Below are positions 9,870 to 47,904 of a stretch of 55,267 nt of DNA, piece after piece. The notes under the pieces are model-generated. The model had not been told where the DNA came from and ran no database searches. It saw only the letters and a program-made list of their open reading frames with translations. This stretch comes from Candidatus Omnitrophota bacterium (lineage in GTDB: Bacteria; Omnitrophota; Gorgyraeia; JABMRN01; RBG-13-46-9). A program made the translations under genes and the position numbers. Numbering within the stretch: position 1 is the stretch's first letter; each line of letters starts with the position of its first letter. The stretch covers positions 1 through 55,267 of the forward strand of contig JBDRHE010000003.1 of assembly GCA_043817155.1 (NCBI GenBank), read 5' to 3'.

Positions 9870-10274
9870 CGTCTTTGCGAGGTGCCGTCGATATAGCTGC
9901 AGATTTTAAGCTACGAGGGACGAGGGACGAGAGACGATTCGTAATTACTCGTCTTTGCGAGGTGCCGTAAAAAGGTGAGCGCACCGAAGCAATTTGCTAA
10001 GTCTGTCTTTGCGAAGTGCCGTAATATAACGAGCGCACTGAAGCAATCATTTCTCCACTCGTCTTTGCGAAGTGCCGTAATATAACGAGCGCACTGAAGC
10101 AATCTCAGACTAGCTCGATGAGATTGCTTCGGCACGTTCGAATATTACGGTGCCTCGCAAAGACGAGGTGAGATGAGATTGTCCCGCCGTTACTATCGTA
10201 TGGCGGGACCCCACCATGCGAAGCATGCGGTGGGGCTTCGGCACACTCGAATATTCCGGTGCCTCGCAAAGACG
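9870..10274. repeat. Family B REP-like array with a nested family D hairpin and a short ACGAGGG heptamer run
   Basis: Four left arms GTCTTTGCGA(G/A)GTGCCGT..GAAGCAAT (first partial), two right arms GAGATTG..CCTCGCAAAGAC; D inside the last right arm at about 10182-10236. Confidence 0.9.
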
Positions 10275-10290
10275 AAGGAAAAGGCCATAT

Positions 10291-11070
10291 ATGAGAAGAC
10301 CGATAATAGCCGGGAATTGGAAGATGTACACTACCGTAGAAGAGTCTGTTACTCTGGCTAACGGCATAAAGAGAGGCTTGTCCGATCTTGATGGCGTTGA
10401 TGTCCTGTTGTGCCCGCCGTTCACGTCCCTTTGGGCCGTTTCCGGAATTATAAACGATACGAATATATCCCTTGGAGCGCAGAATATGTATTGGGATAGA
10501 GAGGGTGCTTTTACGGGAGAGATCTCCGCGTCCATGCTAAAGAGCGCCGGGTGCAAATTTGTGATAATCGGTCATTCAGAGAGAAGGGCCTATTTTGGTG
10601 AAACTAATGAGACGGTCAATAGGAAGGTTAAATACGCCCTCGCAAAAGGCCTGATGCCGATAATGTGCGTAGGTGAGAAGTTGGAAGAAAGGGAGGGCGG
10701 GAAGACATTCGACGTCATATCGTCTCACATAGAAGGTGGCCTCGCTGATCTTAGTGAAAAGGATGCAAAAGATATTATCATTGCCTATGAACCGGTTTGG
10801 GCTATTGGTACCGGTAAGAACGCGACGCCGGATCAGGCAGAGGAAGCGCATAAATTTATAAGGGGTCTGCTTGCAGATAAATTTGGCAAAAGAATTGCCG
10901 AAGAGATGCGCATCCAGTACGGTGGAAGCGTAAAACCCGACAATATAGAGATTCTCATCAAAGAAGAAGATATAGACGGGGCATTGGTTGGAGGGGCTTC
11001 TCTTAAGCCGGACTCTTTTATCGAAATAGTAAAGAAGACAGAGCAGGCTATAAAAAATAAAGTTGTATAA
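10291..11070 (+). CDS. tpiA: Triosephosphate isomerase
   Basis: IAGNWKM, GHSERR, AYEPVWAIGTG, YGGSV, LVGGASL; the ORF extension upstream of 10291 is repeat DNA. Confidence 0.97.
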   Translation: MRRPIIAGNWKMYTTVEESVTLANGIKRGLSDLDGVDVLLCPPFTSLWAVSGIINDTNISLGAQNMYWDREGAFTGEISASMLKSAGCKFVIIGHSERRAYFGETNETVNRKVKYALAKGLMPIMCVGEKLEEREGGKTFDVISSHIEGGLADLSEKDAKDIIIAYEPVWAIGTGKNATPDQAEEAHKFIRGLLADKFGKRIAEEMRIQYGGSVKPDNIEILIKEEDIDGALVGGASLKPDSFIEIVKKTEQAIKNKVV

Positions 11071-11085
11071 AAACGGAGAAATAAG

Positions 11086-11478
11086 ATGCTCTACGGTTTA
11101 GTCATGTCTGTTCACGTGATAGTATGCTTAATGTTGATCATAATAATACTTCTACAAGCCGGCCGGGGGGGCGGTTTGAGCGAAGCTTTTGGCGGTGATT
11201 CATCCCAGACCATATTTGGTACGAAAGTCTCGGTATTTTTAACAAGAGCAACGGTTGTTGCAGCAAGTTTGTTCCTTATGACGTGTCTGCTCTTGGGGAT
11301 AATGACCTCGAGAAGGGGGAAGAGTCTCATCGACTTACAAGGGAGCAGAGCGCTTCCGGCAACAATTCCTTTAACTGAAGAGACGCCAGTGGATACCGAA
11401 CAGATCCAAGAAGAAGTACAGCCGCTTAAGGAAGAGGTTGAGCCTCTTGCAAAATCCGAAGAGCCTGCACAGAACTAA
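11086..11478 (+). CDS. secG: Preprotein translocase subunit SecG
   Basis: Two TMs separated by ILLQAGRGGGLSEAFGG; conserved position after tpiA. Confidence 0.92.
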   Translation: MLYGLVMSVHVIVCLMLIIIILLQAGRGGGLSEAFGGDSSQTIFGTKVSVFLTRATVVAASLFLMTCLLLGIMTSRRGKSLIDLQGSRALPATIPLTEETPVDTEQIQEEVQPLKEEVEPLAKSEEPAQN

Positions 11479-13087
11479 AAGAATACCTTTAAACAGGATC
11501 GTTATCAAAGAGATACCGCTATGTATCATAATAGCGGTATTTTTTTTCACGTCCGTTTCTTACGCCCGCGACTACGGCGATGCATATGTAACCGGCCAGA
11601 TAGGAGACGCCCGAACCCTCGTCCCCATACTTGCTTCTGACAGTCCATCATCATACATCGTGGATCTCGTTTTTGACGGGCTTGTAAGGTACAACAAAGA
11701 CGTGGAATTGGAAGGTCATTTGGCGGAGTCGTGGGATATTGTAGACGACGGCCTTTCGATAGTCTTCCATTTGCGAAAGAACGTAAAATGGCACGACGGC
11801 CACCCCTTCACAGCAAAAGATGTGAAATTCACGTATGAAGCGCTGATAGACCCTAACGTTATCAGCCCTTATAGCGGTGATTTTAAGATGGTAGAGCGCC
11901 TTGAGATTCTGGACGACTACACGGTAAAAGCTACTTACAAAGAACCGTTTGCCCCGGGCCTTACAAGTTGGGGTATGCCTATTATGCCTGCGCATCTATT
12001 AGAAGGAGAGGATCTTAGGGCTACCGACTTTTCAAGGAACCCGGTAGGTACCGGGCCCTTCAAGTTCAAAAGGTGGAAGTCCGGCGATAGGATCGATCTT
12101 CTTTCCAATCATGAATATTTCAAACATAGACCGTATATAGAACGATATATCTATAGGGTAATCCCCGATACAGCCACCATGTTCCTGGAGCTACAGACGC
12201 TGGGTATAGATTCTATGGGGCTTACACCCTTGCAATTCACGAAACAGACCGACATATACCAATTTAAAAGCAGATTTCAAAAGTTTAAGTACCCTTCGTT
12301 CGGTTATACATACATGGCGTATAATTTAAAAAATGAAAAATTTAAGGATAAGAGAGTCAGGCAGGCGCTTAACTACGCTGTCAATAAGCAGGAGCTCATT
12401 GACGGAGTACTCCTTGGGCAGGGAAGGATCTGTACAGGCCAGTTCGTGCCGGAATCCTGGGCATTCAACAAGGACGTAAAGCCGTGTCCCTTCGATCCCA
12501 GTCGGGCGAAGCAGCTTCTTGATCAGTCCGGTTGGCGGGATACTGACCGAGATGGGTGGCTGGATAAGGAGGGCAAGCGATTCGAATTTACAATAATTTC
12601 AAACCTGGGGAATGATAATCGCATGAGAGCGGCGGAAATTATACAGGCAAGGTTAAAAGATATAGGCATAAAAGTTCATATAAGGATATTAGAATGGGCG
12701 GTATTCATAGATGAGTTTGTGAACAAGAAGAGATTCGAAGCATTGATAATGGGTTGGGGCCTTGGCAGGGAGCCGGATTGTTACGATATATTCCATTCCT
12801 CAAAAACGGAGGAAGGTGAATTCAATTTTATAAGTTACTCCAATCCCGAGATCGATGGACTTCTTTTAGAAGGTCGCCGTACATTCGATAGGGAGAAGAG
12901 GAAGGCCGTCTACCATAGAATCCATGAGATAATCTACGATGATCAGCCTTATATGTTCCTGTATATACCGGATTATCTGGTTGCGGTCCACAACAGGTTC
13001 CAAGGCATAGAACAATCTCCGATAGGCATACACTATAACTTTATAGATTGGTGGGTGCCGAAGGATCGGCAGAGGTACCAATACTAG
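11438..13087 (+). CDS. Peptide ABC transporter substrate-binding protein (family 5); start uncertain
   Basis: LRKNVKWHDGHPFTAKDV, PVGTGPF, signal-like hydrophobic stretch; TTG start overlaps secG. Confidence 0.9.
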   Translation: MSLLQNPKSLHRTKRIPLNRIVIKEIPLCIIIAVFFFTSVSYARDYGDAYVTGQIGDARTLVPILASDSPSSYIVDLVFDGLVRYNKDVELEGHLAESWDIVDDGLSIVFHLRKNVKWHDGHPFTAKDVKFTYEALIDPNVISPYSGDFKMVERLEILDDYTVKATYKEPFAPGLTSWGMPIMPAHLLEGEDLRATDFSRNPVGTGPFKFKRWKSGDRIDLLSNHEYFKHRPYIERYIYRVIPDTATMFLELQTLGIDSMGLTPLQFTKQTDIYQFKSRFQKFKYPSFGYTYMAYNLKNEKFKDKRVRQALNYAVNKQELIDGVLLGQGRICTGQFVPESWAFNKDVKPCPFDPSRAKQLLDQSGWRDTDRDGWLDKEGKRFEFTIISNLGNDNRMRAAEIIQARLKDIGIKVHIRILEWAVFIDEFVNKKRFEALIMGWGLGREPDCYDIFHSSKTEEGEFNFISYSNPEIDGLLLEGRRTFDREKRKAVYHRIHEIIYDDQPYMFLYIPDYLVAVHNRFQGIEQSPIGIHYNFIDWWVPKDRQRYQY

Positions 13088-13430
13088 CGTATAGCGGATA
13101 GGATATTAGAAAAATAACGTTTAGCGTATTGCGTAGTGCGTATTGCGTATAGCGAATAGCATATAGCGGATAGGTTGAAAAGATAGAAAATGGCGTTTAG
13201 CGGTTGCGTTTGCGTAACTCGAATCGTTGAACGTAATACGTCTCAGGTAATGGATCAGTGAACGGGTTTTGTTTGTGTTTGTCATCCCCGCGAAAGCGGG
13301 GATCCAGAGGTGGGTCATCGAGAGTACATCCATGGATTCCCGCTTGCGCGGGAATGACAGAGAGAAAACCCATGAAGACTCATCCATTACCGTATCATGC
13401 ATAACGTTTCGAGTTACGCTGGCCGAATAC
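13085..13430. repeat. Nested element: family A left arm plus a long hairpin enclosing a family C REP doublet (13281-13358)
   Basis: Heptamer runs 13085-13203; stems 13212-13240/13391-13419 and 13247-13255/13382-13390 surround the 78-bp doublet. Confidence 0.85.
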
Positions 13431-13448
13431 CGATAAACAGAAAAAAGC

Positions 13449-14417
13449 ATGCTAAAATACATCATCCATCGTCTACTCCATATTGTTCCGATACTTATCG
13501 GCATAACTATCATATCATTTGTCGTGATTAATCTTGCCCCCGGGAAATCGGCGCATCTTATGATGATGAATCCCAGGCTCGATTTTAAAGCGCTGGAGAA
13601 GATGAAGGAGGCCGAAGGGCTAAACAAGCCGTTGCATGTTAGGTATGCTTATTGGCTTAAAAACGCCGTGACCTTTAATTTTGGCAGAAGCCGCGTAGAT
13701 CACAGGCTTGTTACGGAGAAGATAAGAGAGAGGCTCCCGATCACCGTTCTGATCAACATTCTATCTATAGTGATAATATTCACACTCTCGATACCAATAG
13801 GCATAAAGAGCGCGGTTGGAAGGGGTTCTCTCTTTGATAAGACGAGTACCGTATTCGTTTTTCTGGGGTTTGCCGCTCCGAGTTTCTGGATAGGGCTTCT
13901 CCTTATGTCATTCTTTGGTGTCAGGCTTGGCATTATGCCCATTTCAGGCATAGTCTCTCTAGACTTTGAAAACTATAGCATCGCAAGAAAGATCCTGGAT
14001 ATCACCGGTCACCTGGCTCTACCTGTCTTTGTGGCAAGCATAGGGGGACTTGCGGGAATTTCACGATATATGCGCCAGAGCATGTTAAATGCCATAAACC
14101 AGGACTATGTAAGAACCGCCAGGGCAAAGGGTCTTAATGAGTTTACGGTCATATATAAACACGCGCTTAGAAATGCGTTACTTCCTATAATTACGATAGT
14201 GGGTCTCTCAATACCCGGGCTTTTAAGCGGGAGCGTCATCATTGAAACGATCTTTGGTATACCGGGAATGGGAAGGCTTATGGTAGAGTCTGTTTTTACA
14301 AGAGATTATAACGTGATAATGGCAGGTCTGGTGATAAGCGCATTCCTTACGCTTGTTGGGAATTTGGTAGCTGATATAACATATGCGTATGTCGATCCCA
14401 GGATAAGATATAAATGA
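13449..14417 (+). CDS. Peptide ABC transporter permease (OppB/DppB-like)
   Basis: DYVRTARAKGL, HALRNALLPIIT, PGMGRL, multiple TMs. Confidence 0.93.
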   Translation: MLKYIIHRLLHIVPILIGITIISFVVINLAPGKSAHLMMMNPRLDFKALEKMKEAEGLNKPLHVRYAYWLKNAVTFNFGRSRVDHRLVTEKIRERLPITVLINILSIVIIFTLSIPIGIKSAVGRGSLFDKTSTVFVFLGFAAPSFWIGLLLMSFFGVRLGIMPISGIVSLDFENYSIARKILDITGHLALPVFVASIGGLAGISRYMRQSMLNAINQDYVRTARAKGLNEFTVIYKHALRNALLPIITIVGLSIPGLLSGSVIIETIFGIPGMGRLMVESVFTRDYNVIMAGLVISAFLTLVGNLVADITYAYVDPRIRYK

Positions 14418-15235
14418 TAAAGAGAATATTTAAGAATAGACTTACAGTTCTCGGAATGGGCGTAATAGCATTATTGATATTTGTGGCTCTCTTTGCGCCG
14501 ATAATCGCAGGGTACGACCCTACGTCGATAAGTATTAAGGATGCGCTTTTGCCGCCCTCGCAGGAACACCCGCTTGGTACCGATATGCTTGGCCGCGATC
14601 TCTTCTCCAGAATGGTGCACGCAACGCATATCGTCCTGCTTATAGGCTTAGTGGCCGTGGGGTTGGCTACGTTCATTGGACTTATTCTGGGGGCTATGGC
14701 AGGTTACTTCGGCGGTAAAATCGACGCCCTTATAATGCGTTTTACCGATATAATGTTGTGCTTCCCTACATTCTTCGTTATCTTGTCGGTCGTGGCAATG
14801 GTGGGCCCCAGCATATACAATATAATGTTAATAATAGGCTTGACGAGTTGGATGGGTATAGCGCGTTTGATAAGGGCGGAAGTCTTAAGCTTGAAGACGA
14901 GGGACTTTGTGTTGGCCTCAAAGGCGCTCGGGGCCGGAAATGTCTTCATAATAACGAGACATCTAATTCCAAATGGCCTGGGACCTGTTCTTGTCAGTTT
15001 TGTTTTTGGGATAGCTGGCGCTATTCTTACAGAGGCGGGATTAAGTTTTTTGGGACTTGGTGTTCAACCTCCCGATCCAAGCTGGGGCAATATCCTTATG
15101 GAAGGCAAGGCGGTCCTTGGCGTTGGATGGTGGGTGATACTCTTTCCGGGTCTGGCAATTCTCATAACGGTCCTTGCTTTTAATCTACTGGGAGAGGGAT
15201 TGCGGGATGCGTTCAATCCAAGGCTGGAACGGTAA
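14414..15235 (+). CDS. Peptide ABC transporter permease (OppC/DppC-like)
   Basis: HPLGTDMLGRD, EAGLSFLGLG, PSWG, NLLGEGLRDA. Confidence 0.93.
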   Translation: MIKRIFKNRLTVLGMGVIALLIFVALFAPIIAGYDPTSISIKDALLPPSQEHPLGTDMLGRDLFSRMVHATHIVLLIGLVAVGLATFIGLILGAMAGYFGGKIDALIMRFTDIMLCFPTFFVILSVVAMVGPSIYNIMLIIGLTSWMGIARLIRAEVLSLKTRDFVLASKALGAGNVFIITRHLIPNGLGPVLVSFVFGIAGAILTEAGLSFLGLGVQPPDPSWGNILMEGKAVLGVGWWVILFPGLAILITVLAFNLLGEGLRDAFNPRLER

Positions 15236-15260
15236 TATCGTAAAGGAAGAGAGATCTCAG

Positions 15261-16823: not shown

Positions 16824-16847
16824 CTCGAACACCACATTATTAAGTTC

Positions 16848-16876
16848 TTGCAAACCCATGGATCATAATATATAAT
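16848..16876 (+). promoter_or_regulatory. Putative sigma70 promoter for otsA
   Basis: TTGCAA-17 bp-TATAAT. Confidence 0.6.
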
Positions 16877-16900
16877 ATATTTCTTAATCAGGAGCAAACC

Positions 16901-18370: not shown

Positions 18371-18490
18371 CCCGCCTTCGTCCGCCGCCTACGGCGGCGA
18401 GACTTCGGCGAGGTTTTTCCCGCAAGTTCATTCGCGTAGCGGGACCCCGCCACACGATAGTAGCGGCGGGGCGCTCAGTCGAAGCGAAAA
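18371..18490. repeat. Family E hairpin plus reverse family D element
   Basis: CCCGCCTTCGTCCGCCGCCTACGGCGGCGAGACTTCGGC...GCGGGACCCCGCCA...GGCGGG; close match to 42928-43065. Confidence 0.8.
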
Positions 18491-18537
18491 GAAAGATTCC
18501 TCGGGTGTATACCCGCGTGAGCTTCAACTAAAGAGAT

Positions 18538-20435: not shown

Positions 20436-20450
20436 TATTATAAAAATAGT

Positions 20451-20504
20451 AAAAATAGGGACGTCACCCATTTTCTGCACAAAATGGGTGACGTCCCTAT
20501 TTTT
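20451..20504. terminator. Perfect 24-bp inverted repeat; bidirectional terminator or REP-like element
   Basis: AAAAATAGGGACGTCACCCATTTT-ctgcac-AAAATGGGTGACGTCCCTATTTTT. Confidence 0.7.
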
Positions 20505-20526
20505 AAGAATAATCCGTAGAAAACGA

Positions 20527-20554
20527 TTGCATTTTATCCATAAAATGGTAAAAT
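20527..20554 (+). promoter_or_regulatory. Putative promoter for the leu operon
   Basis: TTGCAT-16 bp-TAAAAT with TGn extension. Confidence 0.5.
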
Positions 20555-20577
20555 GTCGCCCTATACATAGGAGAACC

Positions 20578-21858: not shown

Positions 21859-21874
21859 ATTGGATCGAAACAAA

Positions 21875-22144
21875 CGTCTTTGCGAGGTGCCGTAATACAC
21901 AAGCGCACCGAAGCAATCTCAGACTAGCTCGATGAGATTGCTTCGGCACGTTCGAATATTACGGTGCCTCGCAAAGACGAGGTAAGCTTGAGATTGCTTC
22001 GGCACACTCGAATATTACGGTGCCTCGCAAAGACGAGGGAAGCTGGGATTGTCCCGCCGTTGCTTTCGTATGGCGGGACCCCGCCATGCGAAGCATGCGG
22101 CGGGGTTTCGGCACACTCGGAAAATATCGGTGCCTCGCAAAGAC
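21875..22144. repeat. Family B array (one left arm, three right arms) with nested D
   Basis: Same arms and AGACTAGCTCGAT spacer as at 10.1 kb; D at about 22052-22105. Confidence 0.9.
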
Positions 22145-22159
22145 AAAAAGGTAATAGCA

Positions 22160-23697: not shown

Positions 23698-23703
23698 CCA
23701 ACT

Positions 23704-23905
23704 GTCTTTGCGAGGTGCCGTAATGTAACAAGCGCACCGACTTGTCTCTCCGAAGCCACACGCGAAAGCAATGTGGCGAAGGAGGAAGCAATGCTCCACT
23801 CGTCTTTGCGAGGTGCCGTAATACACAAGCGCACCGAAGCAATCTCAAGCTAGCTCGAATGAGATTGCTTCGGCACGCTCGAATTTTCCGGTGCCTCGCA
23901 AAGAC
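23704..23905. repeat. Family B array with an E-like insert in the first left arm
   Basis: Two left arms and one right arm; insert CTTGTCTCTCCGAAGCC..GGCGAAGGAGGA interrupts CCGA^AGCAAT. Confidence 0.9.
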
Positions 23906-23934
23906 GAAGCAGAACGTATAAGGAAGTTCGAATT

Positions 23935-24990: not shown

Positions 24991-24995
24991 TACTA

Positions 24996-32737: not shown

Positions 32738-33922
32738 ATGAAGACTAAAGATGTTGTAAGGCTGTACGATAAGTATGTAATGAAGACCTATACGAGGGTA
32801 CCGCTCGTTGTGGAGACGGCAAAAGATTCTCGCGTTATAGATATCGATGGCAAAGAGTACCTGGACTTCTTTCCCGGTTGGGCGGTAAGCGGCATAGGGC
32901 ACTGTCATGACACGGTCATAAAAGCGCTTTCAAAACAGTCGAGGAAGCTTCTCCATGTGTCCAACAATTATTACAGCGTTCTACAGGGAGAACTTGCGCA
33001 GAAGATAATATCTCATGGGTTTCCCGGGAAGGTATTCTTCTGTAATTCGGGTGCGGAGGCTAATGAGGGAGCCGTGAAACTCGCGCGAAGATATGGCAAT
33101 GAGAGGGGGAGATTTGAGATCATTACGATGAAGGGATCCTTTCACGGCAGGACGCTTGCAATGATAGCCGCAACAGGTCAGGATAAGGTTAAATCCGGCT
33201 TTGAACCGATGCCGGAAGGCTTTGTCCATGTCCCGTTCGGAGATATAAACGCCATTAAGAACGCTATAAACGATCGGACGGCAGGTATCGCGCTTGAATT
33301 GATCCAGTGCGAAGGTGGTATAAAAGTAGCGACAAAGGAATATATAGATGAAGTAAGAGACATTTGTGATGCAAGCGATATTGTGCTTATTTTTGACGAA
33401 GTGCAAACGGGTATCGGAAGGACAGGGAAGATGTTCTGCTATCAGAATTATAAAACAGTTCCGGATGTGATGACTCTTGCAAAATCGCTCGGAGGCGGCC
33501 TTCCAATAGGAGCAATCGTAGCAAGATCAAAATTCAGCGATGTTCTGACGCCCGGATCACACGCGTCCACTTTTGGCGGTAGTCCCATCGTGTGCGCGGC
33601 TGCACTCGGCGTTTTTAAAGCGATCGAGGAAGAGGGTCTCTTGCAAAACGCTGTTAAACAGGGCAGGTACCTGATTAAGAAGCTGTCGGCCTTAAAGAAG
33701 AGATATAACGTCATAAAAGAGATAAGGGGTATGGCGCTTACTGTAGGGGTAGAACTCTCTTTGGACGGGCAAGAGATATACGAAAGGGTCCTCGAAAGGG
33801 GATTACTGATAAATTGTACACAGAAGAATGTCCTCAGGATCATGCCACCGCTAACGGTCACGAAGTCACAAATCGATAAGGCGATTGGTATACTGGACGA
33901 AATATTAGCGAATAGCGGATAG
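32738..33922 (+). CDS. argD: Acetylornithine aminotransferase
   Basis: NSGAEANE, SFHGRT, DEVQTGIGRTG, TLAKSLGGG. Confidence 0.93.
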   Translation: MKTKDVVRLYDKYVMKTYTRVPLVVETAKDSRVIDIDGKEYLDFFPGWAVSGIGHCHDTVIKALSKQSRKLLHVSNNYYSVLQGELAQKIISHGFPGKVFFCNSGAEANEGAVKLARRYGNERGRFEIITMKGSFHGRTLAMIAATGQDKVKSGFEPMPEGFVHVPFGDINAIKNAINDRTAGIALELIQCEGGIKVATKEYIDEVRDICDASDIVLIFDEVQTGIGRTGKMFCYQNYKTVPDVMTLAKSLGGGLPIGAIVARSKFSDVLTPGSHASTFGGSPIVCAAALGVFKAIEEEGLLQNAVKQGRYLIKKLSALKKRYNVIKEIRGMALTVGVELSLDGQEIYERVLERGLLINCTQKNVLRIMPPLTVTKSQIDKAIGILDEILANSG

Positions 33923-34079
33923 GTTATTAGAAAAATAACGTTTAGCGTATTGCGTGATGCGGATTAGCGTATTGCGTGATGCGGATTGCGTATTGCGTAT
34001 AGCGGATAAGTTAGGAAGATAAACTTTTCGGAAACGTAAAGTACTAACCTATACGCTATCCGCTATATGCTATACGCTA
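33906..34079. repeat. Family A heptamer-tandem inverted-repeat element
   Basis: TAGCG/TTGCG heptamers, core GAAACGTAAAGTACTAACC, right arm CTATACGCTATCCGCTATATGCTATACGCTA. Confidence 0.85.
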
Positions 34080-34101
34080 GAAGTTAAAGAGAGTTAACAA
34101 A

Positions 34102-35016
34102 ATGAAGAAAGACCTGATCACAATTAAGGATCTCTCCAAGGCGCAGATCCTGGAGCTCTTCAAACTTGCAAAGGCATTAAAGAAGAAGCCGTTATCCAAG
34201 AGTAACAGTTTAAACGGAAAGTCACTCGCGCTCGTCTTCCAAAAACCTTCCAACAGGACACGGGTATCGTTCGATGTAGGCATGTTCCAGCTTGGTGGGA
34301 ACGCAATATATCTTGGACCTGACGAACTGAAGCTCGGGGTAAGGGAATCCGTTAAAGATGTTGCTAAGGTTCTGGCAAGGTATGTTGACGGTGTTGTTGT
34401 AAGGACGCACGAACACCAGGATGTCATAAGCATGGCAGAGGCAGCGACTGTGTCGGTTATAAACGGGTTGAGTAAGCTGCTACATCCTTGCCAGGGTTTA
34501 AGTGATCTGTTTACAATAGATGAGTATTTTAACGATAGGAAGATCAAGATCTCGTTTATCGGAGATGGGAACAATGTGCTCCATTCGCTTCTTCTGGGAT
34601 GCAGCATACTGGGGAGAGACCTTTCAATTGCAACGCCGGTGAATTGCGAGCCCGATCCTGGGATAGTAGCCGAAGCAAAAAGGTGTGCTTTTGCCAACAA
34701 GTCTACCATAGAGCTTACGAATGATCCTAAAGAGTGCGCACAGAATGCGGATGTGATATATACAGATGTGTGGGTCAGCATGGGTCAGGAGTCTTCGCAT
34801 GAAGAGAGGATGAACGCATTTAAAGGATTCCAGATAAACGCTGAGCTACTCGCTTGCGCTAAGGAGAATACCTTGATCATGCATTGCCTTCCGGCTCACA
34901 GAGGTGAGGAGATCACCGACGAAATATTAGATAGTAAGAATTCCATAGTATATGACCAGGCGGAGAATAGGCTTCATGTGCAGAAGGCCATATTGTTGAC
35001 TTTGCTCGGGGGATAA
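34102..35016 (+). CDS. argF: Ornithine carbamoyltransferase
   Basis: KPSNRTR, HPCQ, YTDVWVSMG, HCLP, QAENR. Confidence 0.95.
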   Translation: MKKDLITIKDLSKAQILELFKLAKALKKKPLSKSNSLNGKSLALVFQKPSNRTRVSFDVGMFQLGGNAIYLGPDELKLGVRESVKDVAKVLARYVDGVVVRTHEHQDVISMAEAATVSVINGLSKLLHPCQGLSDLFTIDEYFNDRKIKISFIGDGNNVLHSLLLGCSILGRDLSIATPVNCEPDPGIVAEAKRCAFANKSTIELTNDPKECAQNADVIYTDVWVSMGQESSHEERMNAFKGFQINAELLACAKENTLIMHCLPAHRGEEITDEILDSKNSIVYDQAENRLHVQKAILLTLLGG

Positions 35017-35020
35017 CGAT

Positions 35021-35234
35021 TAGTGTATTGCGTGATGCGTACTGCGTATAGCGGATAGGTTATTAGAAAAATAACGTTTAGCGTGTTGCGTGATGCGGAT
35101 TGCGTATTGCGAATAGCGTTTAGCGGATAGGTTGAAAAGATAGCGTATAGCGAATAGCATATAGCGGATAGGATAGGAAAATAGGCTTTTATGAAACGGA
35201 AAGTACTAACCTATACGCTATCCGTTATATGCTA
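35021..35234. repeat. Family A heptamer-tandem inverted-repeat element
   Basis: Same subunits as the 13.1 and 33.9 kb copies. Confidence 0.85.
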
Positions 35235-35267
35235 GAAATATGCTAGAATAATAATTCAGGAGCCAAT

Positions 35268-37861: not shown

Positions 37862-37914
37862 ATTGGAAGTCTTGTGCAGAGATGGAGCTGCTGTTTTGCA
37901 AGTCCAAAAAACCT

Positions 37915-37992
37915 GTCATTCCCGCGGAAGCGGGAATCCATGGATAGACTCACTACGAGTTCGCTCTGGATCCCCGCTTGCGCGGGGATGAC
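37915..37992. repeat. Family C REP doublet (78 bp, reverse orientation)
   Basis: GTCATTCCCGCGGAAGCGGGAATCCA-26 bp-TGGATCCCCGCTTGCGCGGGGATGAC. Confidence 0.9.
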
Positions 37993-38024
37993 ATGTGGGA
38001 AAACGAGAGGCTAAGATACGGATT

Positions 38025-39269: not shown

Positions 39270-39270
39270 T

Positions 39271-41011: not shown

Positions 41012-41026
41012 TCCAGGAGGATTATT

Positions 41027-41725
41027 GTGGTAAAGGTAATCGTGAGCGGAGCGCTTGGAAGAATGGGGAGGAGAATCACCGAGCTTGCCGAGAAAGATAA
41101 GGATCTTCTGGTTGTCGGGGGCGTGGATCTAAAAGCGGACCCGAATGTCAATGTTGTAGATAGTCTCGATAGCGTAAAAGATTATTTCGATTGCATTATT
41201 GAATTCACAACCCCCACCGCTACGATAGAACATGTGAAGCGTTGTACGACGTTCAAAAAATCCATGGTTATCGGGACAACGGGTTTATCTGAGGAGGAGG
41301 CCGGGCTTATTAAGGACGCTGCAAAGGCTATACCGATAGTCTACTCTCCAAACATGTCCGTGGGCGTGAACGTGCTCTTCAGTCTTATAGAAAAATCCGC
41401 TCTTGCGCTCGATGATAGCTACAAGATCAGTATAGAAGAGGCGCACCATATTCATAAGAAGGATAAACCGAGTGGGACCGCCAAGCTTATGTCGGATATC
41501 GCGAAGAAGGGAAGGGCCGATGATGATGTCCCTATAAATTCCATACGCAAAGATGAGATAGTAGGGGATCACACGATAGTATTCGAAAGCAGCGTTGATA
41601 TATTAAGAATTGCTCATAGCGCAAAGACTAGAGATATATTTGCGCTCGGTGCATTGAAAGCGGCGAAATTTGTTTGCGGAAAGAAGAAAGGATTATTCTC
41701 CATGAGGGATGTCCTGGCTTTGTAG
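41027..41725 (+). CDS. dapB: 4-hydroxy-tetrahydrodipicolinate reductase
   Basis: GALGRMG, IGTTG, PNMSVG, EAHHIHKKDKPSGTA. Confidence 0.95.
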   Translation: MVKVIVSGALGRMGRRITELAEKDKDLLVVGGVDLKADPNVNVVDSLDSVKDYFDCIIEFTTPTATIEHVKRCTTFKKSMVIGTTGLSEEEAGLIKDAAKAIPIVYSPNMSVGVNVLFSLIEKSALALDDSYKISIEEAHHIHKKDKPSGTAKLMSDIAKKGRADDDVPINSIRKDEIVGDHTIVFESSVDILRIAHSAKTRDIFALGALKAAKFVCGKKKGLFSMRDVLAL

Positions 41726-41757
41726 GAGACCTCTTTTAAGAAAAACGAGAGGATTGA

Positions 41758-42927
41758 ATGGGCATAGAGATCAAACTATCGGAAAGGCTTGAAAAGTTAC
41801 CACCGTATCTTTTTGTAGAGATCGATAGGGCAAAGAAGAAGGCCGAAGAAGAAGGAAAAGATATAATCGATCTTGGTGTGGGGGATCCTGATCAACCAAC
41901 GCCAAGGTTCATAATTGACGCTCTCCATAAAGCGAGTCTCAACCCCGCAACTCACAGATACGCTCTGGATAGAGGTGTGTCCGAGCTGCGAATGGAGATA
42001 GCCGGGTGGTACAGATCCAGGTTCGGGGTAGAGCTTAATCCCGATACCGAAGTACTTCCCCTCATAGGTTCGAAAGAGGGCATAGCCCACATACCAATGG
42101 CTTTCATAAATAACGGGGATGTCGGGCTAATTCCGGATCCATGCTACCCGCCCTATAATTCCAGCATCATATTTGCAGGCGGGGAGCCTTACCATATGTC
42201 GCTTCTGGCTGAAAACGCTTTTTTACCTGATCTTGAGAGCATCGAATCCGGGGCTTTAAATAAGGCAAAGATCATGTTTTTGAATTATCCGAACAACCCT
42301 ACCGCAGGTGTTTGCGATAAGTCATTCTTTAATAGGGTGGTTAAGTTCGCGGAAGATAACGGTATAGTGGTCTGTCACGACGCTGCCTACAGCGAGCTCT
42401 CTTATGATGGATCGAAGATGTCAAGTTTTCTTGAAGTGCCGGGCGCGAAGGATGTAGGCGTAGAATTCCATTCTTTTTCAAAGATATTCAATATGACAGG
42501 TTGGCGCCTTGGATTTGCTTGCGGTAATTCGAAAATAATAGCTGCGCTTGCGAAGGTTAAATCAAATATCGATTCCGGAGTATTTAATGCTATACAGGCT
42601 TCGGGTATCGAAGCGTTAAAGCGGATCGATAAAGTTGCGCGCGCTATACAGAAATTATATGAAAGCCGCAGGAACGTTTTTGTGGATGGTCTGGGCAATT
42701 CCGGCTGGAAGGTGCCAAAACCGAAAGCAACCTTTTATGTGTGGGCTCCCGTTCCGAAAGGCTATACATCGAAGAGTTTTGCAGCAGTCTTGCTGGAAAG
42801 AGCGCAAGTGGTGGTTACACCCGGAAACGGATTTGGCAAGAGTGGCGAAGGCTATGTAAGAATGGCTTTAACGGTAAGTGAGTCAAGATTGAAAGAGGCG
42901 GTAGATAGGATCAAGGGGATCCTTTGA
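41758..42927 (+). CDS. dapL: LL-diaminopimelate aminotransferase
   Basis: LPPYLF, GSKEGIAH, NYPNNPT, SFSKIFNMTGWRLG; dap operon context. Confidence 0.85.
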   Translation: MGIEIKLSERLEKLPPYLFVEIDRAKKKAEEEGKDIIDLGVGDPDQPTPRFIIDALHKASLNPATHRYALDRGVSELRMEIAGWYRSRFGVELNPDTEVLPLIGSKEGIAHIPMAFINNGDVGLIPDPCYPPYNSSIIFAGGEPYHMSLLAENAFLPDLESIESGALNKAKIMFLNYPNNPTAGVCDKSFFNRVVKFAEDNGIVVCHDAAYSELSYDGSKMSSFLEVPGAKDVGVEFHSFSKIFNMTGWRLGFACGNSKIIAALAKVKSNIDSGVFNAIQASGIEALKRIDKVARAIQKLYESRRNVFVDGLGNSGWKVPKPKATFYVWAPVPKGYTSKSFAAVLLERAQVVVTPGNGFGKSGEGYVRMALTVSESRLKEAVDRIKGIL

Positions 42928-43065
42928 CCCGCCTTCGTCCGCTGCCTACGGCGACGAGACTTCGGCCCTCGGCTTCGCCGAGAGGCGAGCTCGGTTTTTC
43001 CCGCCAGTACATTAGTGTGGCGGGACCCCGCCATGTGATAGCAACGGCGGGGCGCTTCGCCAAAG
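42928..43065. repeat. Family E hairpin plus reverse family D element
   Basis: Sister of 18371-18490 with an extra CTCGGCTTCGCCGAG hairpin; starts immediately after the stop codon. Confidence 0.8.
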
Positions 43066-43111
43066 AATGCCGAATGGATGTACAGATGTAAAGCTGCGGA
43101 GCTCAAAACAT

Positions 43112-43534
43112 ATGCGCGACAGGAGATCTTCGGTATATATAGGTATCGGGTCAAATCTGGGCGACAGGAACGCCAATATAGACAAGGCCCTCAAGCTCGT
43201 AAGCATGGTGAAGGGTGTAAAGCTGCAAAAGGTATCTTCGATCTATGAGACAGAGCCGTGCGGCGGACCTTTGCAGGGTAATTTCTTAAACGGCGTATTT
43301 AACATAAAGACCACGCTCGATCCATTTAAGCTCCTGGCAGAGCTCGGGAAGATAGAGAAGAACCTTGGAAGAAGACGAAGCGCGCTAAACGGCCCGCGCA
43401 CGATAGACCTGGATATCCTACTATTCGGTTCGCGAAGGATAGATACAGAAAAACTCAAGATCCCGCATCCCAGAATGCATAAGAGGGAATTTGTATTAAG
43501 GGGACTTAGGGAATTGAATGCAAGAGTTGTTTGA
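43112..43534 (+). CDS. folK: 2-amino-4-hydroxy-6-hydroxymethyldihydropteridine diphosphokinase
   Basis: IGIGSNLGDR, SSIYETEP, GPRTIDLDIL, IPHPRM. Confidence 0.95.
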   Translation: MRDRRSSVYIGIGSNLGDRNANIDKALKLVSMVKGVKLQKVSSIYETEPCGGPLQGNFLNGVFNIKTTLDPFKLLAELGKIEKNLGRRRSALNGPRTIDLDILLFGSRRIDTEKLKIPHPRMHKREFVLRGLRELNARVV

Positions 43535-43546
43535 TCTAATATCACT

Positions 43547-44404
43547 ATGAAGATAATTACCGACATCGACAAGATGAAGACCCACGCCAAGATCATAAAA
43601 AAAGTGAGGCGGTTGGTCGGGTTTGTGCCGACCATGGGTTATCTCCATGACGGGCATATGAGCCTTATAAGATCTGCCAAAAAACAGTCCGATATAGTTA
43701 TAGCCAGCATATTCGTTAATCCTATACAATTCGCTCCTGGTGAGGATTTCGCAAAGTATCCGCGTGATAGCGCGCGCGACGAGGGCCTTGCGAAGAATTG
43801 CGGGGTGGACGTCTTATTCTGCCCGAAGCCTGAGGAGATGTATCCGGATGGCTTTTCCACCTATGTTAATGTAGAGGGGCTGACGAGTGGTCTTTGCGGC
43901 AGATCGCGATCCGGTCACTTCCGCGGGGTAACGACCGTTGTGCTGAAGCTACTGGAGATCATAAGGCCGGATATCGCATATTTTGGACAGAAAGATGCAC
44001 AGCAGGCGATAGTGATAAAGAAGATGATAGAGGATCTGAATATGGATATGGTCTTGAAGATCCTACCTACGTTGCGGGAGGCGGATGGCCTGGCGATGAG
44101 TTCTCGTAACGCATACCTCTCAAAGGCCGAAAGAAGAGATGCTAATGTGTTATTCAAGGCGCTCAAGCTGGCCGAAGAGATGGTTGATCAAGGAGAGAGG
44201 AATTCCAGAAAGATCATTGAAGATATGAGAGACCTGATAAAGGATTCGCCTTCGGCAAAGATAGACTACGTATCGATAGTGGACACGACTCGCCTCGAAG
44301 ATGTCTCTGAAATAGACGGCGAGGTATTGATAGCGCTTGCTTTGCGTATAGGTAAGACGAGGCTTATCGATAACGTAATTTTAGACGCAAAAGGAAAGGC
44401 ATGA
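43547..44404 (+). CDS. panC: Pantoate--beta-alanine ligase
   Basis: PTMGYLHDGH, FVNPIQF, FGQKDAQQ, GLAMSSRN, TRLIDN. Confidence 0.97.
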   Translation: MKIITDIDKMKTHAKIIKKVRRLVGFVPTMGYLHDGHMSLIRSAKKQSDIVIASIFVNPIQFAPGEDFAKYPRDSARDEGLAKNCGVDVLFCPKPEEMYPDGFSTYVNVEGLTSGLCGRSRSGHFRGVTTVVLKLLEIIRPDIAYFGQKDAQQAIVIKKMIEDLNMDMVLKILPTLREADGLAMSSRNAYLSKAERRDANVLFKALKLAEEMVDQGERNSRKIIEDMRDLIKDSPSAKIDYVSIVDTTRLEDVSEIDGEVLIALALRIGKTRLIDNVILDAKGKA

Positions 44405-45375
44405 CCGGAAATTCTAAACAAGATATTTTATACAAGGAAGATCTGAAGAGAAAGATACGTAAGCTCAAGGCCGAAAAGAACGCAGTTATAATTGTGCACA
44501 ATTATCAGCGTGACGAGATACAGGAGATAGCTGACATCTCGGGAGACTCCCTTAAGCTGTCGCAGGCAGCCGTAGACACGAAAGCGGATGTCATAGTCTT
44601 CTGCGGCGTCTACTTTATGGCTGAGAGCGCTTCGATCCTGAATCCTGACAAGAAGGTACTTTTGCCGGTTAAAGAGGCGGGATGTCCGCTTGCTGACATG
44701 ATCACGGTTAAGAAGCTGCGCGAAAAGAAGAAGGAGTATCCTGAGGCTGCGGTGGTCTGCTATGTCAATTCAAGCGCAGAAGTCAAGGCTGAAAGCGACA
44801 TAAGTTGTACGTCCTCCAATGCCATAGATGTAGTACGGTCCATAAAGAGCAAGATGGTCATTTTTGTTCCGGACAAGAACCTGGCCAGGTACGTGCAGAG
44901 CCAGGTGCCTGAGAAGAAGATAATATACTGGGAAGGGTTTTGCCCTACTCATATCAGGCTTACGGAAGAGGATGTTTTAAAAACAAAGAAGAGCTTCCCT
45001 AAAGCTGAATTTGTAGCGCATCCTGAATGCAGCCCGGAAGTGCTGGAGTTGGCGGACCATATCTGTTCTACAGGGGGTATGTTTCAGTATGTTAAGGCGA
45101 CAGATTGTAAGGAATTCATAATCGGGACCGAAAGTGGCATGCTCTACAAGCTGAAGAAGGAGAACCCCGGCAAGAAGTTCTACATGCCTACAAATCACCT
45201 GATATGCGCAAACATGAAGCTTACAACGCTCGGTTGGGTGGCTTATTCATTGGAGAACCTTGTTTACGAGGTAAAGGTTCCGGACAAGACCAGGCATAAA
45301 GCGAGGCTCACGCTGGATAGAATGCTCAGCGTAACAGAAAAAAAATGTGCCCGCGCAAGTCTTTCTTTCAGGTAA
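44401..45375 (+). CDS. nadA: Quinolinate synthase
   Basis: HNYQ, GDSL, FCGVYFMAE, YVNSSA, AHPEC, CANMK. Confidence 0.96.
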   Translation: MTGNSKQDILYKEDLKRKIRKLKAEKNAVIIVHNYQRDEIQEIADISGDSLKLSQAAVDTKADVIVFCGVYFMAESASILNPDKKVLLPVKEAGCPLADMITVKKLREKKKEYPEAAVVCYVNSSAEVKAESDISCTSSNAIDVVRSIKSKMVIFVPDKNLARYVQSQVPEKKIIYWEGFCPTHIRLTEEDVLKTKKSFPKAEFVAHPECSPEVLELADHICSTGGMFQYVKATDCKEFIIGTESGMLYKLKKENPGKKFYMPTNHLICANMKLTTLGWVAYSLENLVYEVKVPDKTRHKARLTLDRMLSVTEKKCARASLSFR

Positions 45376-45437
45376 TCTTAGAATTTGATATGAGGGTTGA
45401 ATGTTCGGGATAAGGGTAGCAGTGAGATCAGAATAGC

Positions 45438-46250
45438 ATGGGGAGACTAAAGGTCGGGATCATAGGATGTGGCGTGATAGGCGCCGAAATAGCTATTGCA
45501 TGTCAGGATAGACTTAGCGCTGAAACAGAACTCATAGCCCTATATGACATAGACGTAAAAAAGAGCGCTGAACTTTCCAGTTTGCTAAAGAAAGATGTCG
45601 TTGTATCATCTTCCGAAGAACTGATAGATAGGTCGGACCTGGTTATCGAAGCCGCAAACAGTAGCGCAGCGCGAGAGATCGTAAAGAGATCCGTAGAGAC
45701 CGGAACGGATGTTATGGTCATGAGCATAGGTGGTTTGATCGATTCTTCAGGTCTCCTGGAAGCTGCAAGAAAAAAGAATGTTAGAGTCTTCTTTCCGAGT
45801 GGTGCATTATGCGGCATAGATGGATTAAAGGCGGCAAAGTTATCTTATATTAAGAGCGTTACTCTTACAACTAGAAAACCGCCGAAAGGCTTAGAAGGTG
45901 CGCCTTACTTGAGAGAGAATGGGATCGAAGTCAGCAATATAAAAGAGGAGACGGTCATCTTTGACGGAACGGCCGATAATGCGGTTAAGGGCTTTCCCAA
46001 GAACATCAACGTAGCCTCGCTTTTAAGTCTTGCCGGCGTCGGAGCGGATCGAACGAAGGTGAGGATAATAGCGGTGCCGGGATCCAAAAAGAATATACAT
46101 GAAGTTGAGATCGAAGGTGAATTCGGAAAGATAGTGACGAGAACCGAGAACGTTCCATCACGCAAGAATCCTAAAACGAGCGAACTCGCGATCCTTTCTG
46201 CTATCGCTACTTTGAAGAATATGACAGATAGCGTTCGGATGGGTACGTGA
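45438..46250 (+). CDS. nadX: L-aspartate dehydrogenase
   Basis: GCGVIG, SGALCGID, TTRKPP, FPKNINVA, NPKTS; adjacent to nadA. Confidence 0.9.
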   Translation: MGRLKVGIIGCGVIGAEIAIACQDRLSAETELIALYDIDVKKSAELSSLLKKDVVVSSSEELIDRSDLVIEAANSSAAREIVKRSVETGTDVMVMSIGGLIDSSGLLEAARKKNVRVFFPSGALCGIDGLKAAKLSYIKSVTLTTRKPPKGLEGAPYLRENGIEVSNIKEETVIFDGTADNAVKGFPKNINVASLLSLAGVGADRTKVRIIAVPGSKKNIHEVEIEGEFGKIVTRTENVPSRKNPKTSELAILSAIATLKNMTDSVRMGT

Positions 46251-46258
46251 GGGAATGG

Positions 46259-46444
46259 TCCCGCCGTTACTTGCGTATGGCGGGACCCCGCAATGCGTTC
46301 TTCTTCGCTACGTATTTACATGCGTAGCTTCGAAGCAACTTAATAGTTTCTACTACGCTTGGCACATTAAGTGCTTAGCGTAGTAGAACGCAAGCACGGC
46401 GGGGCAAATGACTCGCCCTGTACGCCGCAGGCGGGCGAAGAGGC
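46259..46444. repeat. Family D/E element carrying a 95-bp hairpin insert
   Basis: Matches 49996-50091 except that 46297-46391 replaces the loop dinucleotide CT. Confidence 0.8.
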
Positions 46445-46480
46445 GGATGTTGATATTAACATTGAAGGGAGGTGAATCAA

Positions 46481-46735
46481 ATGGCCAAAAAGATGGTGTG
46501 CAAATGTGGCATAAAGAGAAAGAGCGGTTATCTCTATTTCGTAGGCAAAGATGGTTGCGCGTACGAGGTTAAGATGGCTCGCGGCAAGAAGAAGGGTGGA
46601 GGAAAGAAGAAGATCCACGATTGTCGCATAAAGAAAGAGAAGGGCTATCTTTATTTCATCGAAAAAAAAGGAAACGTCTCTGCAGCTGAGATGCAGCGTG
46701 GCGGAAAGAAGAAGAAAAAGAAGAAAAAAAGATAA
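46481..46735 (+). CDS. Small, highly basic protein with an internal duplication; candidate nucleic-acid-binding protein
   Basis: AGGGAGGTGA SD; two IK...GYLYF..K.G......M.RG units; poly-Lys tail. Confidence 0.8.
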   Translation: MAKKMVCKCGIKRKSGYLYFVGKDGCAYEVKMARGKKKGGGKKKIHDCRIKKEKGYLYFIEKKGNVSAAEMQRGGKKKKKKKKR

Positions 46736-46749
46736 CCACTACGCAGATG

Positions 46750-46826
46750 GCGGCATGCGGCATGCGGCATGCGGTTAGAAGGCCAGAGATGCCAAGCTAA
46801 CCGTACACCGCATGCCGCAAACCGCA
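46750..46826. repeat. Heptamer inverted-repeat element, GCGGCAT variant
   Basis: (GCGGCAT)3GCGGTTAG...CTAACCGTACACCGCATGCCGCAAACCGCA. Confidence 0.75.
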
Positions 46827-46832
46827 CTTTGA

Positions 46833-47621
46833 ATGAAGATCGAAAATGAGAATATATATGTCCAGGTAAAGTATTCAGATCTCGCCTGTGACCCCAAGAA
46901 TATAGAGAGATACTTTTTTGGATTCGGAGGAGAACTGTACTTTAGTTCCGGGGAGATCTATGATCACGATCACAAGATAGCCGGAGAGATCAAATCATTC
47001 GTTAAAAGCAAGAACCTCGCCTTAAGGCTTCACGCCCCTATTATCGAGATAGACTATTCTGAGCTCCGCGATATTAAACCATACATCCATTCTACATATG
47101 ATCGAGTTATAGATATCTGCCGGGCGCTTAGCATTAAATCAATTGTCGCGCATGCGGAGTTCAATTACAGGATCAACTTTTCAGTAAAGAGACAACTTGA
47201 CGCTGCCGTTCTTCTATGGCGAGAGCTGTGTGATAAATGCGAAACGAAATTGATAGACCTGAATATGGAGAATCATAACGAATTGTTCGCGGACGATCTT
47301 GTAGCTTTGGCCAAAAAGATCGATTCGAAGCATTTTGGTCTGTGCTTTGATGTGGGGCACATAAATGCATTCAGCAATTCAAGCCCGGATGAATGGATAG
47401 AGAGTTGTCCCGGGCATCTGCTAAAAGAGGCCCATCTGGCTGATAACATGGGAGACGATGATACGCACTTACCATTGGGAGAAGGGACGATAGATATTAA
47501 GAATTTCGTTAAATCTTGTATTGAACTTAACAGGGATTCTGTTTTTGTGCTTGAACCGAGAAATGTCGAGGAGACAGAGAGGAGCCTACTCTTTTTGCGA
47601 AGAGAGGGCATTATTGATTAA
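46833..47621 (+). CDS. Sugar phosphate isomerase/epimerase-like TIM barrel (AP endonuclease 2 family)
   Basis: LHAP, MEN, CFDVGH, HLADN.G.DD.HLPLGEGTID. Confidence 0.85.
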   Translation: MKIENENIYVQVKYSDLACDPKNIERYFFGFGGELYFSSGEIYDHDHKIAGEIKSFVKSKNLALRLHAPIIEIDYSELRDIKPYIHSTYDRVIDICRALSIKSIVAHAEFNYRINFSVKRQLDAAVLLWRELCDKCETKLIDLNMENHNELFADDLVALAKKIDSKHFGLCFDVGHINAFSNSSPDEWIESCPGHLLKEAHLADNMGDDDTHLPLGEGTIDIKNFVKSCIELNRDSVFVLEPRNVEETERSLLFLRREGIID

Positions 47622-47633
47622 GGGGGATTAACT

Positions 47634-47904
47634 CGTCTTTGCGAGGTGTCGTAAAGAACTAGCGCACCGAAGACCCGCCGCATGCTTCGCATAGCGGGAT
47701 CCCGCCATAAGAAAGTAACGGCGGGACAATCTCCATGTTTGTCATCCCCGCGAAAGCGGGGATCCAGAGTAGGCTTGTAGAAAGTCCATCCATGGATTCC
47801 CGCTTGCGCGGGAATGACAGACTATTGAAAATGAGATTGCCTGCCTACCTGCAGTATGCAGGCAGGCTTCGGCACACTCGAATATTACGGTGCCTCGCAA
47901 AGAC
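47634..47904. repeat. Family B doublet with reverse D in the left arm, a C doublet (47741-47818) in the spacer and a CCTGCC..GGCAGG hairpin in the right arm
   Basis: Direct reading of arms and inserts. Confidence 0.9.

Follow-up and report, generated by a model that had tools for sequence, protein, structure and literature searches.

Ssn nucleases, GIY-YIG enzymes of the cd10448 group that occur together with the NTS and SRM hairpin repeats, are the closest described counterpart of the system considered here (Chenal et al. 2025, PMC11893778). According to the available part of that report, these enzymes bind their own hairpin solely as single-stranded DNA (ssDNA) and accept altered or extended loops, and for the one enzyme with a detailed cleavage map the cut falls 3 nt upstream of the CGTC-tagged end; the genes are flanked by their hairpins in a manner called 'identical to' insertion sequences, and mobility is presented as a hypothesis only (PMC11893778). 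Here we describe a palindromic repeat family, B, in a 55,267-nucleotide stretch of DNA (the window) from Candidatus Omnitrophota bacterium (assembly GCA_043817155.1, contig JBDRHE010000003.1). The arms of B are split by several kinds of smaller hairpin at a single bond, GAGATTG^CTTCGG (the caret marks the bond), and elsewhere in the genome a B dimer encloses a GIY-YIG gene. The genome searched is a metagenome-assembled genome (MAG) of 1.93 Mb in 92 contigs, in which the window is contig C3.

Like the Ssn/SRM system, this genome has a small single-domain GIY-YIG gene between inverted CGTC/TGTC-tagged hairpins that are scattered in hundreds; a second hairpin family, P, matches NTS itself, and B has the outline GTC-(A/T)TT..AAT-C (PMC11893778). 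The differences are that the available part of that report describes no smaller hairpins at a constant bond within the repeat, that the cut mapped there lies upstream of the tag and not at the B bond (PMC11893778), and that B has an interrupted stem. The CGTC-tagged repetitive extragenic palindromes (REPs) are also comparable: they share with B the CGTC/TGTC terminal tag, head-to-head heterodimers and residence in larger palindromes, where some REP dimers are found, and the accessible text reports that no transposase was found for them (Di Nocera et al. 2013, PMC3733652). By definition they have a stem of 8–9 bp and a loop of 4–5 nt, which places B outside the class and P, with a 4-nt GNAA loop, inside it; moreover, the small REP there is the guest of one host palindrome (PMC3733652). 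Here, in contrast, several guest families share one bond and nesting reaches three to four levels.

Other known systems resemble parts of this arrangement. IS200/IS605 elements, their miniature derivatives and the pairs formed by REPs and REP-associated tyrosine transposases (RAYTs) show oriented insertion without target duplication, a single-strand logic and hairpin ends. The present inserts agree in that no duplication was observed, and differ in that their target is only loosely TT(N)^C without a fixed tetranucleotide, their length is 20–64 nt, their hairpins are terminal, and no cognate TnpA was found among the five Y1 loci of the genome. GIY-YIG homing endonucleases such as I-TevI make a site-specific cut, and copying of the occupied allele would then give an exact, duplication-free joint; enzymes of this type differ in that they cut double-stranded DNA, possess a DNA-binding domain and lie within the element that they spread. 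Mosaic intergenic repeat arrays of comparable make-up are known from Escherichia coli as bacterial interspersed mosaic elements (BIMEs). In the neisserial intergenic mosaic elements (NIMEs), dRS3 hairpins are likewise combined with other short repeats in many intergenic arrangements, but the available part of the source does not report the linkers as separate, exact-ended hairpin elements that also occur in other hosts (PMC3898611). The dRS3 hairpin, which is of the NTS class, is in addition a specific integration target of the Nf1/MDA filamentous prophage, although the guest in that case, an entire prophage, brings its own recombinase and is not a hairpin of 20–64 nt (PMC3898611). No report of small hairpins that sit nested at one constant bond in bacterial palindromic repeats was found, subscription-only journals lying outside the coverage of the literature search.

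Hairpin insertions at one bond of the B arm

To locate B arms genome-wide, a 16-nt arm core was searched with up to 2 mismatches, which gave 330 cores; in the window, the 16-mer of the intact arm, GAGATTGCTTCGGCAC, occurs 6 times at this threshold, against 0.02 expected from shuffled sequences. In 98 of the 330 cores a hairpin sits exactly at GAGATTG^CTTCGG (D 37, F64 26, F31 20, G27 8, G24 7), 157 cores are intact, and 15 arms carry the hairpin E 2–4 nt past the bond. Other inserts, of 19–200 nt and including several additional hairpins, are present in 11 cores, and the rest are tandem read-throughs (11), cores without the GAGATTG anchor (20) or without CTTCGG (14), and cores cut by contig ends (4). 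Counted per insert, the bond holds 46 of 46 F cores, 9 of 11 G27, 7 of 9 G24 and 46 of 74 distinct D loci, while all 16 copies of E sit at GATTGCTTC^; the insertion points are therefore not scattered. A preliminary description of the window had proposed that different hairpins share one site of the B arm. The genome-wide histogram of insertion points, with its single bond, bears this out and rules out scatter, and all five occupied sites named in the window were recovered to within one base. Several kinds of insert do share the bond as described, but the number of types, given as three, is at least six in the whole genome.

The inserts belong to distinct families. D is 54 nt long and consists of two adjacent hairpins (predicted ssDNA fold –18.4 kcal/mol, z –4.4), and its sequence is variable, with 20 sequences among 37 copies. 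Hairpins of the CCTGCC type, with lengths of 20, 24, 27, 31 and 64 nt, form one family with common ends, to which the 27-nt hairpin of the window, initially regarded as unrelated to other inserts, also belongs; F64 is F31 plus a hairpin of 33 nt. In some copies of E a further hairpin is found within the loop, and together with F64 containing F31 and with the occupied P loops described below this substantiates the proposed hierarchy of hairpins nested in layers. D, the CCTGCC types and E enter B arms in one orientation. At the joints of D, F and G, GAGATTG and CTTCGG are retained without any duplicated base, and at those of E there is at most a 2-nt TC overlap; the combination of terminal inverted repeats and target-site duplication that marks classical miniature inverted-repeat transposable elements was not found.

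Stems of B are of two types, B1 (GGCAC/GTGCC) and B2 (GGTGC/GCACC), and dimers read B2-centre-B1. Two further rearrangements have the bond as a breakpoint. The 8-nt sequence CTTCGGTG is gone from B2 arms at C13:221 and C81:11957, the deletion beginning exactly at the bond (GAGATTG^CGCTAAC); both copies have common flanks and may derive from one event. A hairpin, H, stands in place of the entire central module, from CCGAAG^ to ^CTTCGG, which constitutes a second kind of breakpoint at the same position.

The occupancy of the two arm types is strongly unequal, with B1:B2 ratios of 33:3 for D, 25:1 for F64 and 20:0 for F31, compared to 78:68 for empty arms (Fisher p ~1e-5 each), whereas E is without arm-type bias (8:7). 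Since B1 and B2 are identical over 13 nt around the bond, the acting factor must read the stem beyond it. Targeting of one DNA strand alone was considered as a cause of the bias and rejected, as B1 arms on the strand opposite to the genes are occupied in 7 of 13 cases and B2 arms on the gene strand in 0 of 8; occupancy follows arm type and not DNA strand. The dimers themselves are oriented with transcription: between co-directional open reading frames (ORFs), 122 of 138 B1 arms share the strand of the genes and 81 of 90 B2 arms lie opposite to it, for which an insertion bias in exposed ssDNA and selection on transcripts are candidate causes. The site had been termed structure-specific. It is indeed precise, but occupancy depends on the B1 or B2 arm sequence and on local sequence, and not on structure alone.

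Each B arm comprises a TTGC:GCAA base, a GA/GAA internal loop, an apical stem of 5 bp and a loop of 13–14 nt. A single arm is predicted to fold only weakly as ssDNA (–6.4 and –7.1 kcal/mol; z –0.3 and –1.2, no better than shuffled sequences), while the dimer is predicted to form one long hairpin (–41.3 kcal/mol, z –11) with the bond 7 bp below the loop; D and G27 are predicted to fold as independent side hairpins. An unpaired CGTC/TGTC tag with a short tail opposite is present both in B, (C/T)GTCTTTGCGAGG...CCGAAGCAATCTC, and in P, TGTCATYCCCGCG...GCGGGRATCC.

Evidence for separate insertion events comes mainly from F64. Its 26 copies show 0 differences over 64 nt and lie in 16 different 20-nt left contexts and on 13 right-arm haplotypes, making up 23 flank combinations. 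The right arms differ by 0.069 per nt, 7 of the 13 haplotypes also occur on empty B1 arms, and the first polymorphic arm positions around F64 are 10–11 nt from the joint. The commonest D variant similarly has 6 identical copies in 6 different flank combinations. Because D varies among its copies, the assembly evidently retains variation in repeats of such length, and the uniformity of F64 is probably genuine and not a product of assembly flattening. The 164 clusters of the genome display 89 architectures. The occurrence of identical F64 in 23 flank combinations speaks against the descent of all composites from one event, which the preliminary description had named as a refuting outcome.

Several inserts are also found in hosts other than B. 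The D loci away from the B bond comprise 6 in P-hairpin loops and 22 in loops of tRNA fragments or at other sites; the ends of D are constant across all hosts, and its sites have a loose TT(N)^C context. Four copies noted earlier in the window outside B, at 18.4, 43.0, 46.3 and 50.0 kb, were all found by reading the sequence (Table 1). Two pairs of filled and empty paralogues are available: on contig C24, CACCAGACTT[D]CGCTCTGAAGG can be compared with CACCAGACTTCGCTCTGAAGG 3.8 kb away, and a partial tRNA-Glu, GATTTT[D]CATTCTG, with the intact tRNA-Glu. In neither pair is there a duplication or a lost base. Of the P hairpins, 193 have the plain GNAA loop and 17 have a hairpin inserted in it, D after loop position 1 and the 20-nt/27-nt CCTGCC hairpins after position 4/5; each guest type thus keeps its own bond, and one loop holds both. 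Besides the B bond, the 20-nt CCTGCC hairpin occupies 6 P loops. A chimeric locus at C87:28851 has the left flank of a P loop, then D, then the CAATCTC right flank of B, and this junction suggests recombination between D copies in different hosts.

The D hairpin pattern was found in 4 of 40 related genomes, with 1–3 copies each, while the B arm pattern was found in 0 of the 40 and gave 0 matches in a wider search of genome contigs. Among metagenome contigs the B pattern was present in only one, L022, with a related but different arm.

GIY-YIG and Y1 genes near the repeats

The preliminary description had called for a search for Y1 transposase or, alternatively, GIY-YIG genes flanked by the repeats, and for GIY-YIG this search yielded a gene between inverted B arms. 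The genome has 12 hits to PF01541 (GIY-YIG), 11 of them in short open frames (49–123 aa, two cut at contig ends). The gene at C12:23339-23551 encodes a single-domain protein of 95 aa (PF01541, 64 bits over residues 4–75) and is placed exactly centrally in a B dimer, between ...CCGAAGCAATCTCAAGCGAG and ACTTGAGATTGCTTCGGCAC..., with one B2 arm on one side and three B1 arms, inverted, on the other. Given this central position, ordinary B dimers would correspond to gene-less versions of the same unit. On contig C8, a gene whose product is 71% identical to the C12 protein is followed by a B variant. P hairpins also stand beside GIY-YIG genes, on both sides of the gene on C37 and on the one visible side of those on C31 and C60 (partial, at contig ends). 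P matches the published NTS motif CGTCATTCCCGCGMAVGCGGGAATCYRG, as do the flanks of the C37 gene, and the C12 and C37 proteins are 49% identical. Two features of the Ssn/SRM system, a single-domain GIY-YIG protein of ~90–100 aa and a gene between inverted, genome-repeated hairpins, are both found here.

Relatives of the C12 protein were then collected from other organisms. Of 539 confirmed relatives, the best 80 (49–65% identical) were examined for their flanks, each of up to 600 nt. The relatives span many phyla, including Ignavibacteria, Chloroflexi, Cyanobacteria, Nitrospira, Alphaproteobacteria and Bacteroidota, and at most of the best 80 loci a frame of the form (C/T)GTCATTGCGAG-[variable apex]-CGAAGCAATCTC lies beside the gene, the shortest being 29 nt long. 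Since this B-type frame flanks most of these genes across phyla, B is, judged by sequence, the local representative of a hairpin class that is widespread and linked to the C12-type nuclease subfamily. Projected onto the cross-phylum frame, the bond reads CGAAG^CAATCTC and falls within the 3' strand of the basal stem.

D appears to be associated with a different nuclease. In the region C88:16000-16650, a 5' fragment of tRNA-Glu has two hairpins lodged in it, a D-like one in the D-loop and D itself in the anticodon loop, and is followed by a GIY-YIG gene of 91 aa and then by an intact tRNA-Glu. A tRNA-Glu cassette of this type is also present in two other genera of the family (L103 and L107), with nucleases that are 56–65% identical. 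We read D as the hairpin partner of this tRNA-nested cassette, distinct from the nuclease unit of B.

The proposed link of B to RAYT/HUH transposases did not hold. PF01797 (Y1) has 5 hits in the genome, and the three full Y1 ORFs score 52–70 bits, below the NCBIfam RAYT cut-off of 80. No B, D or F motifs were found near any of the five loci, and three of them, on C22, C6 and C24, adjoin low-copy palindromes of their own. On these grounds, RAYT or IS200 enzymes were rejected as the mobiliser.

A separate small pair resembling REP/RAYT is present at C22:26189-26966, where a Y1 (IS200-like) gene has on both sides a palindrome of its own, TTCCAGGCCCGGGGCCTGGAA, with 4–5 copies in the genome.

Features of the window

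The four B clusters of the window all occupy gaps between same-strand genes (Table 1). The cluster at 47.6 kb is a B dimer whose left bond is filled by D and whose right bond is filled by G27, with a P dimer in the centre. At the E hairpin of the third cluster (~23741-23784), a 2-nt GA/TC overlap places the joint 2–4 nt from the D bond.

Table 1. Repeat arms, inserts and further copies of D in the window (positions are those of the window).
Feature	Position	Strand
Left half of cluster 1: three arms of the B2 type with the CGTC-tagged strand on +; the last one ends in CAATCTC	9951..10107	-
GAGATTG and intact B1 arm; bond 10126/10127 empty	10120..10168	+
GAGATTG anchor preceding D	10175..10181	+
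D, 54-nt double hairpin, at the bond	10182..10235	+
B1 arm after D	10236..10277	+
B2-type arm ending CAATCTC; empty left arm of dimer	21875..21920	-
GAGATTG and intact B1 arm, two tandem units, period 56	21934..22038	+
D at the bond; anchor GGGATTG 22045-22051; arm 22106-22147 begins TTTCGG	22052..22105	+
B2-type arm split by E hairpin (~23741-23784), 2–4 nt off the D bond	23703..23797	-
Plain B dimer: B2 arm, CAATCTC, loop, GAGATTG (23861-23867), B1 arm; both bonds empty	23800..23909	.
B2-type arm ending CCGAAG	47632..47672	-
D reversed, in left-arm bond between CCGAAG and CAATCTC (47727-47733)	47673..47726	-
P dimer, 80 nt, two NTS-type hairpins, centre of the 47.6 kb B dimer	47740..47819	.
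G27, CCTGCCTACCTGCAGTATGCAGGCAGG, 27-nt CCTGCC...GGCAGG hairpin, at the bond; anchor GAGATTG 47833-47839	47840..47866	+
B1 arm after G27	47867..47906	+
D-family copy outside B, GGTTTT^D^CGCTCAG	18418..18471	+
D-family copy outside B, CGGTTTT^D^CGCTTCG	42999..43052	+
D-family copy outside B; second hairpin interrupted or truncated	46259..46297	+
D-family copy outside B	49996..50049	+

P dimers matching the NTS motif are found in the window at 13276-13361, 37910-37995 and 47736-47821. The window also contains repeats of other kinds. Short tandem arrays resembling TAGCG(G/T)ATAGCG, each with a conserved tail of 60–100 nt, lie at 1240-2600, 13055-13200 and 33876-35250; these arrays (families D1, D2, D6, D7 and D12) have no relation to B, D or P. 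A direct repeat of 149 nt, 98% identical, occupies positions 1-149 and 48678-48826, 48.7 kb apart, one copy forming the start of the contig.

Proposed mechanism and alternative explanations

We favour, with a probability of roughly 55%, a reading in which tiny hairpins insert without target duplication at one bond of the B1 arm after a cut by a hairpin-reading GIY-YIG nuclease, through homing-like copying or direct joining. The B arms would form the terminal hairpins of a small unit, mobile in appearance, that has no gene but that of the 95-aa nuclease of the Ssn kind, and the ordinary dimers would be gene-less miniatures of this C12-type unit. D, the CCTGCC types (20–64 nt) and E would be separate tiny hairpin elements that invaded B arms repeatedly and independently, with base precision: at GAGATTG^CTTCGG for D and the CCTGCC types, and 2–4 nt further for E. 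The bond may be opened in ssDNA by the nuclease, after which the guest hairpin would be joined directly, or copied by repair from an occupied arm in a homing-like manner; both the enzyme and the joining step are what we infer.

A number of points weigh against this reading. In the 372 frames at the 80 related loci and L022 (flanks of up to 600 nt), no hairpin is present at the equivalent CGAAG^CAAT bond. The cut mapped for Ssn is on the other side of the hairpin from the B bond, and no GIY-YIG nuclease is known to join DNA. No orthologous pair of empty and filled sites was found for a B arm, B being in no other genome searched. Population polymorphism, filled versus empty at one locus, was likewise not obtained from public data: one sequencing run containing 0.23 of the sampled window words, which may be the source sample itself, and two runs of the same study gave only short, low-depth contigs, in which the apparent joints were other repeat copies. 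The MAG is in 92 contigs, many of which terminate in these repeats. F31 and F64 never occur outside B, and taken alone could be variants of it. Finally, composites are also copied as blocks, as seen from tandem D+B1 units with a period of 109–110 and from the order F-B1-D-B1 at no fewer than three loci; separate insertion and block copying both operate, and a single founding event is excluded.

The recurrence and tandem duplication of composites is also what a mosaic array of the BIME or NIME kind would give, in which the B arms, the central hairpin and D, F, G and E are alternative modules that spread as composites and are reshuffled by homologous recombination or gene conversion, with no dedicated insertion. 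Such an explanation fits with the confinement of E, like that of F31 and F64, to B, with the recombination through D that the chimeric junction of P-left, D and B-right suggests, and with the arrays of dRS3 hairpins and other repeats in the available account of neisserial NIMEs (PMC3898611). We nevertheless consider it unlikely, as identical F64 in 23 flank combinations, with polymorphisms from 10 nt onwards, would demand conversion tracts with ends inside a 7-nt interval on one flank and a 9-nt interval on the other, and as unrelated hosts carry D and the 20-nt CCTGCC hairpin with ends that are no less exact; nor can homology explain the preference for B1, because the two arm types are alike over the 13 nt around the bond. 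The exactness of these insertions could instead reflect the action in trans of a single-strand transposase of the Y1/HUH kind (RAYT or IS200/IS605 TnpA), with D, which has two similar hairpins, as a minimal palindrome-associated element, since exact, oriented, duplication-free insertion beside or within a hairpin is the mark of transposition of the IS200/IS605 type. The genome does have five PF01797 hits and the D sites their loose TT(N)^C context, but the Y1 loci have the low scores and the different low-copy palindromes described above in place of B, D or F motifs, the sites have no target tetranucleotide in common, and the hairpins of D extend to its very ends, whereas those of IS608-type ends are subterminal. 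Transposition of the IS200/IS605 type is also brought up in the discussion of the Ssn report (PMC11893778). The available text on CGTC-tagged repeats reports them without association with a tyrosine transposase (PMC3733652), and we regard this explanation as quite improbable.

A role in RNA has also to be weighed, in which B would be an intergenic RNA with a defined structure and the inserts would represent a helix whose variation is tolerated at one of the junctions. The dimers follow the direction of transcription in ~89% of cases between co-directional ORFs, and the location of all four window clusters between same-strand genes is likewise in keeping with such a role. However, an Rfam scan of the window at gathering thresholds gave 0 families, and the inserts are discrete, highly conserved families that are present in other hosts too. 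The loops, moreover, are of the types GCGAAGC and GNAA, which form stable DNA mini-hairpins. As the known partner enzyme of the family also acts on ssDNA and not on RNA, in the available part of its description (PMC11893778), an RNA role appears highly improbable.

A bolder form of the favoured insertion reading is that the hairpins of 20–64 nt are free-standing mobile DNA, the smallest known, that Ssn-type nucleases move them via ssDNA, and that the B, P and D systems invade each other's hairpins at bonds defined by their enzymes. We put this forward tentatively, and on balance think it doubtful.

Ssn nucleases were described only in 2025, and in the available part of that report their role outside Neisseria is left open and the mobility of their repeats is no more than hypothesised (PMC11893778). 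The 'transposase-less' CGTC-tagged repeats, as the accessible text presents them (PMC3733652), are now connected with GIY-YIG genes, and this in a phylum distant from the ones studied so far. The present genome is a natural record of repeated, base-exact insertions into repeats of the Ssn type, and its inserts are candidates for the smallest mobile DNA units. The predicted cleavage bond and the B1/B2 specificity can be checked with two oligonucleotides and one small protein. If the favoured reading is true, Ssn nucleases would drive a new pathway of the cut-and-join or the homing-like kind, with GAGATTG^CTTCGG as a readable cleavage site.

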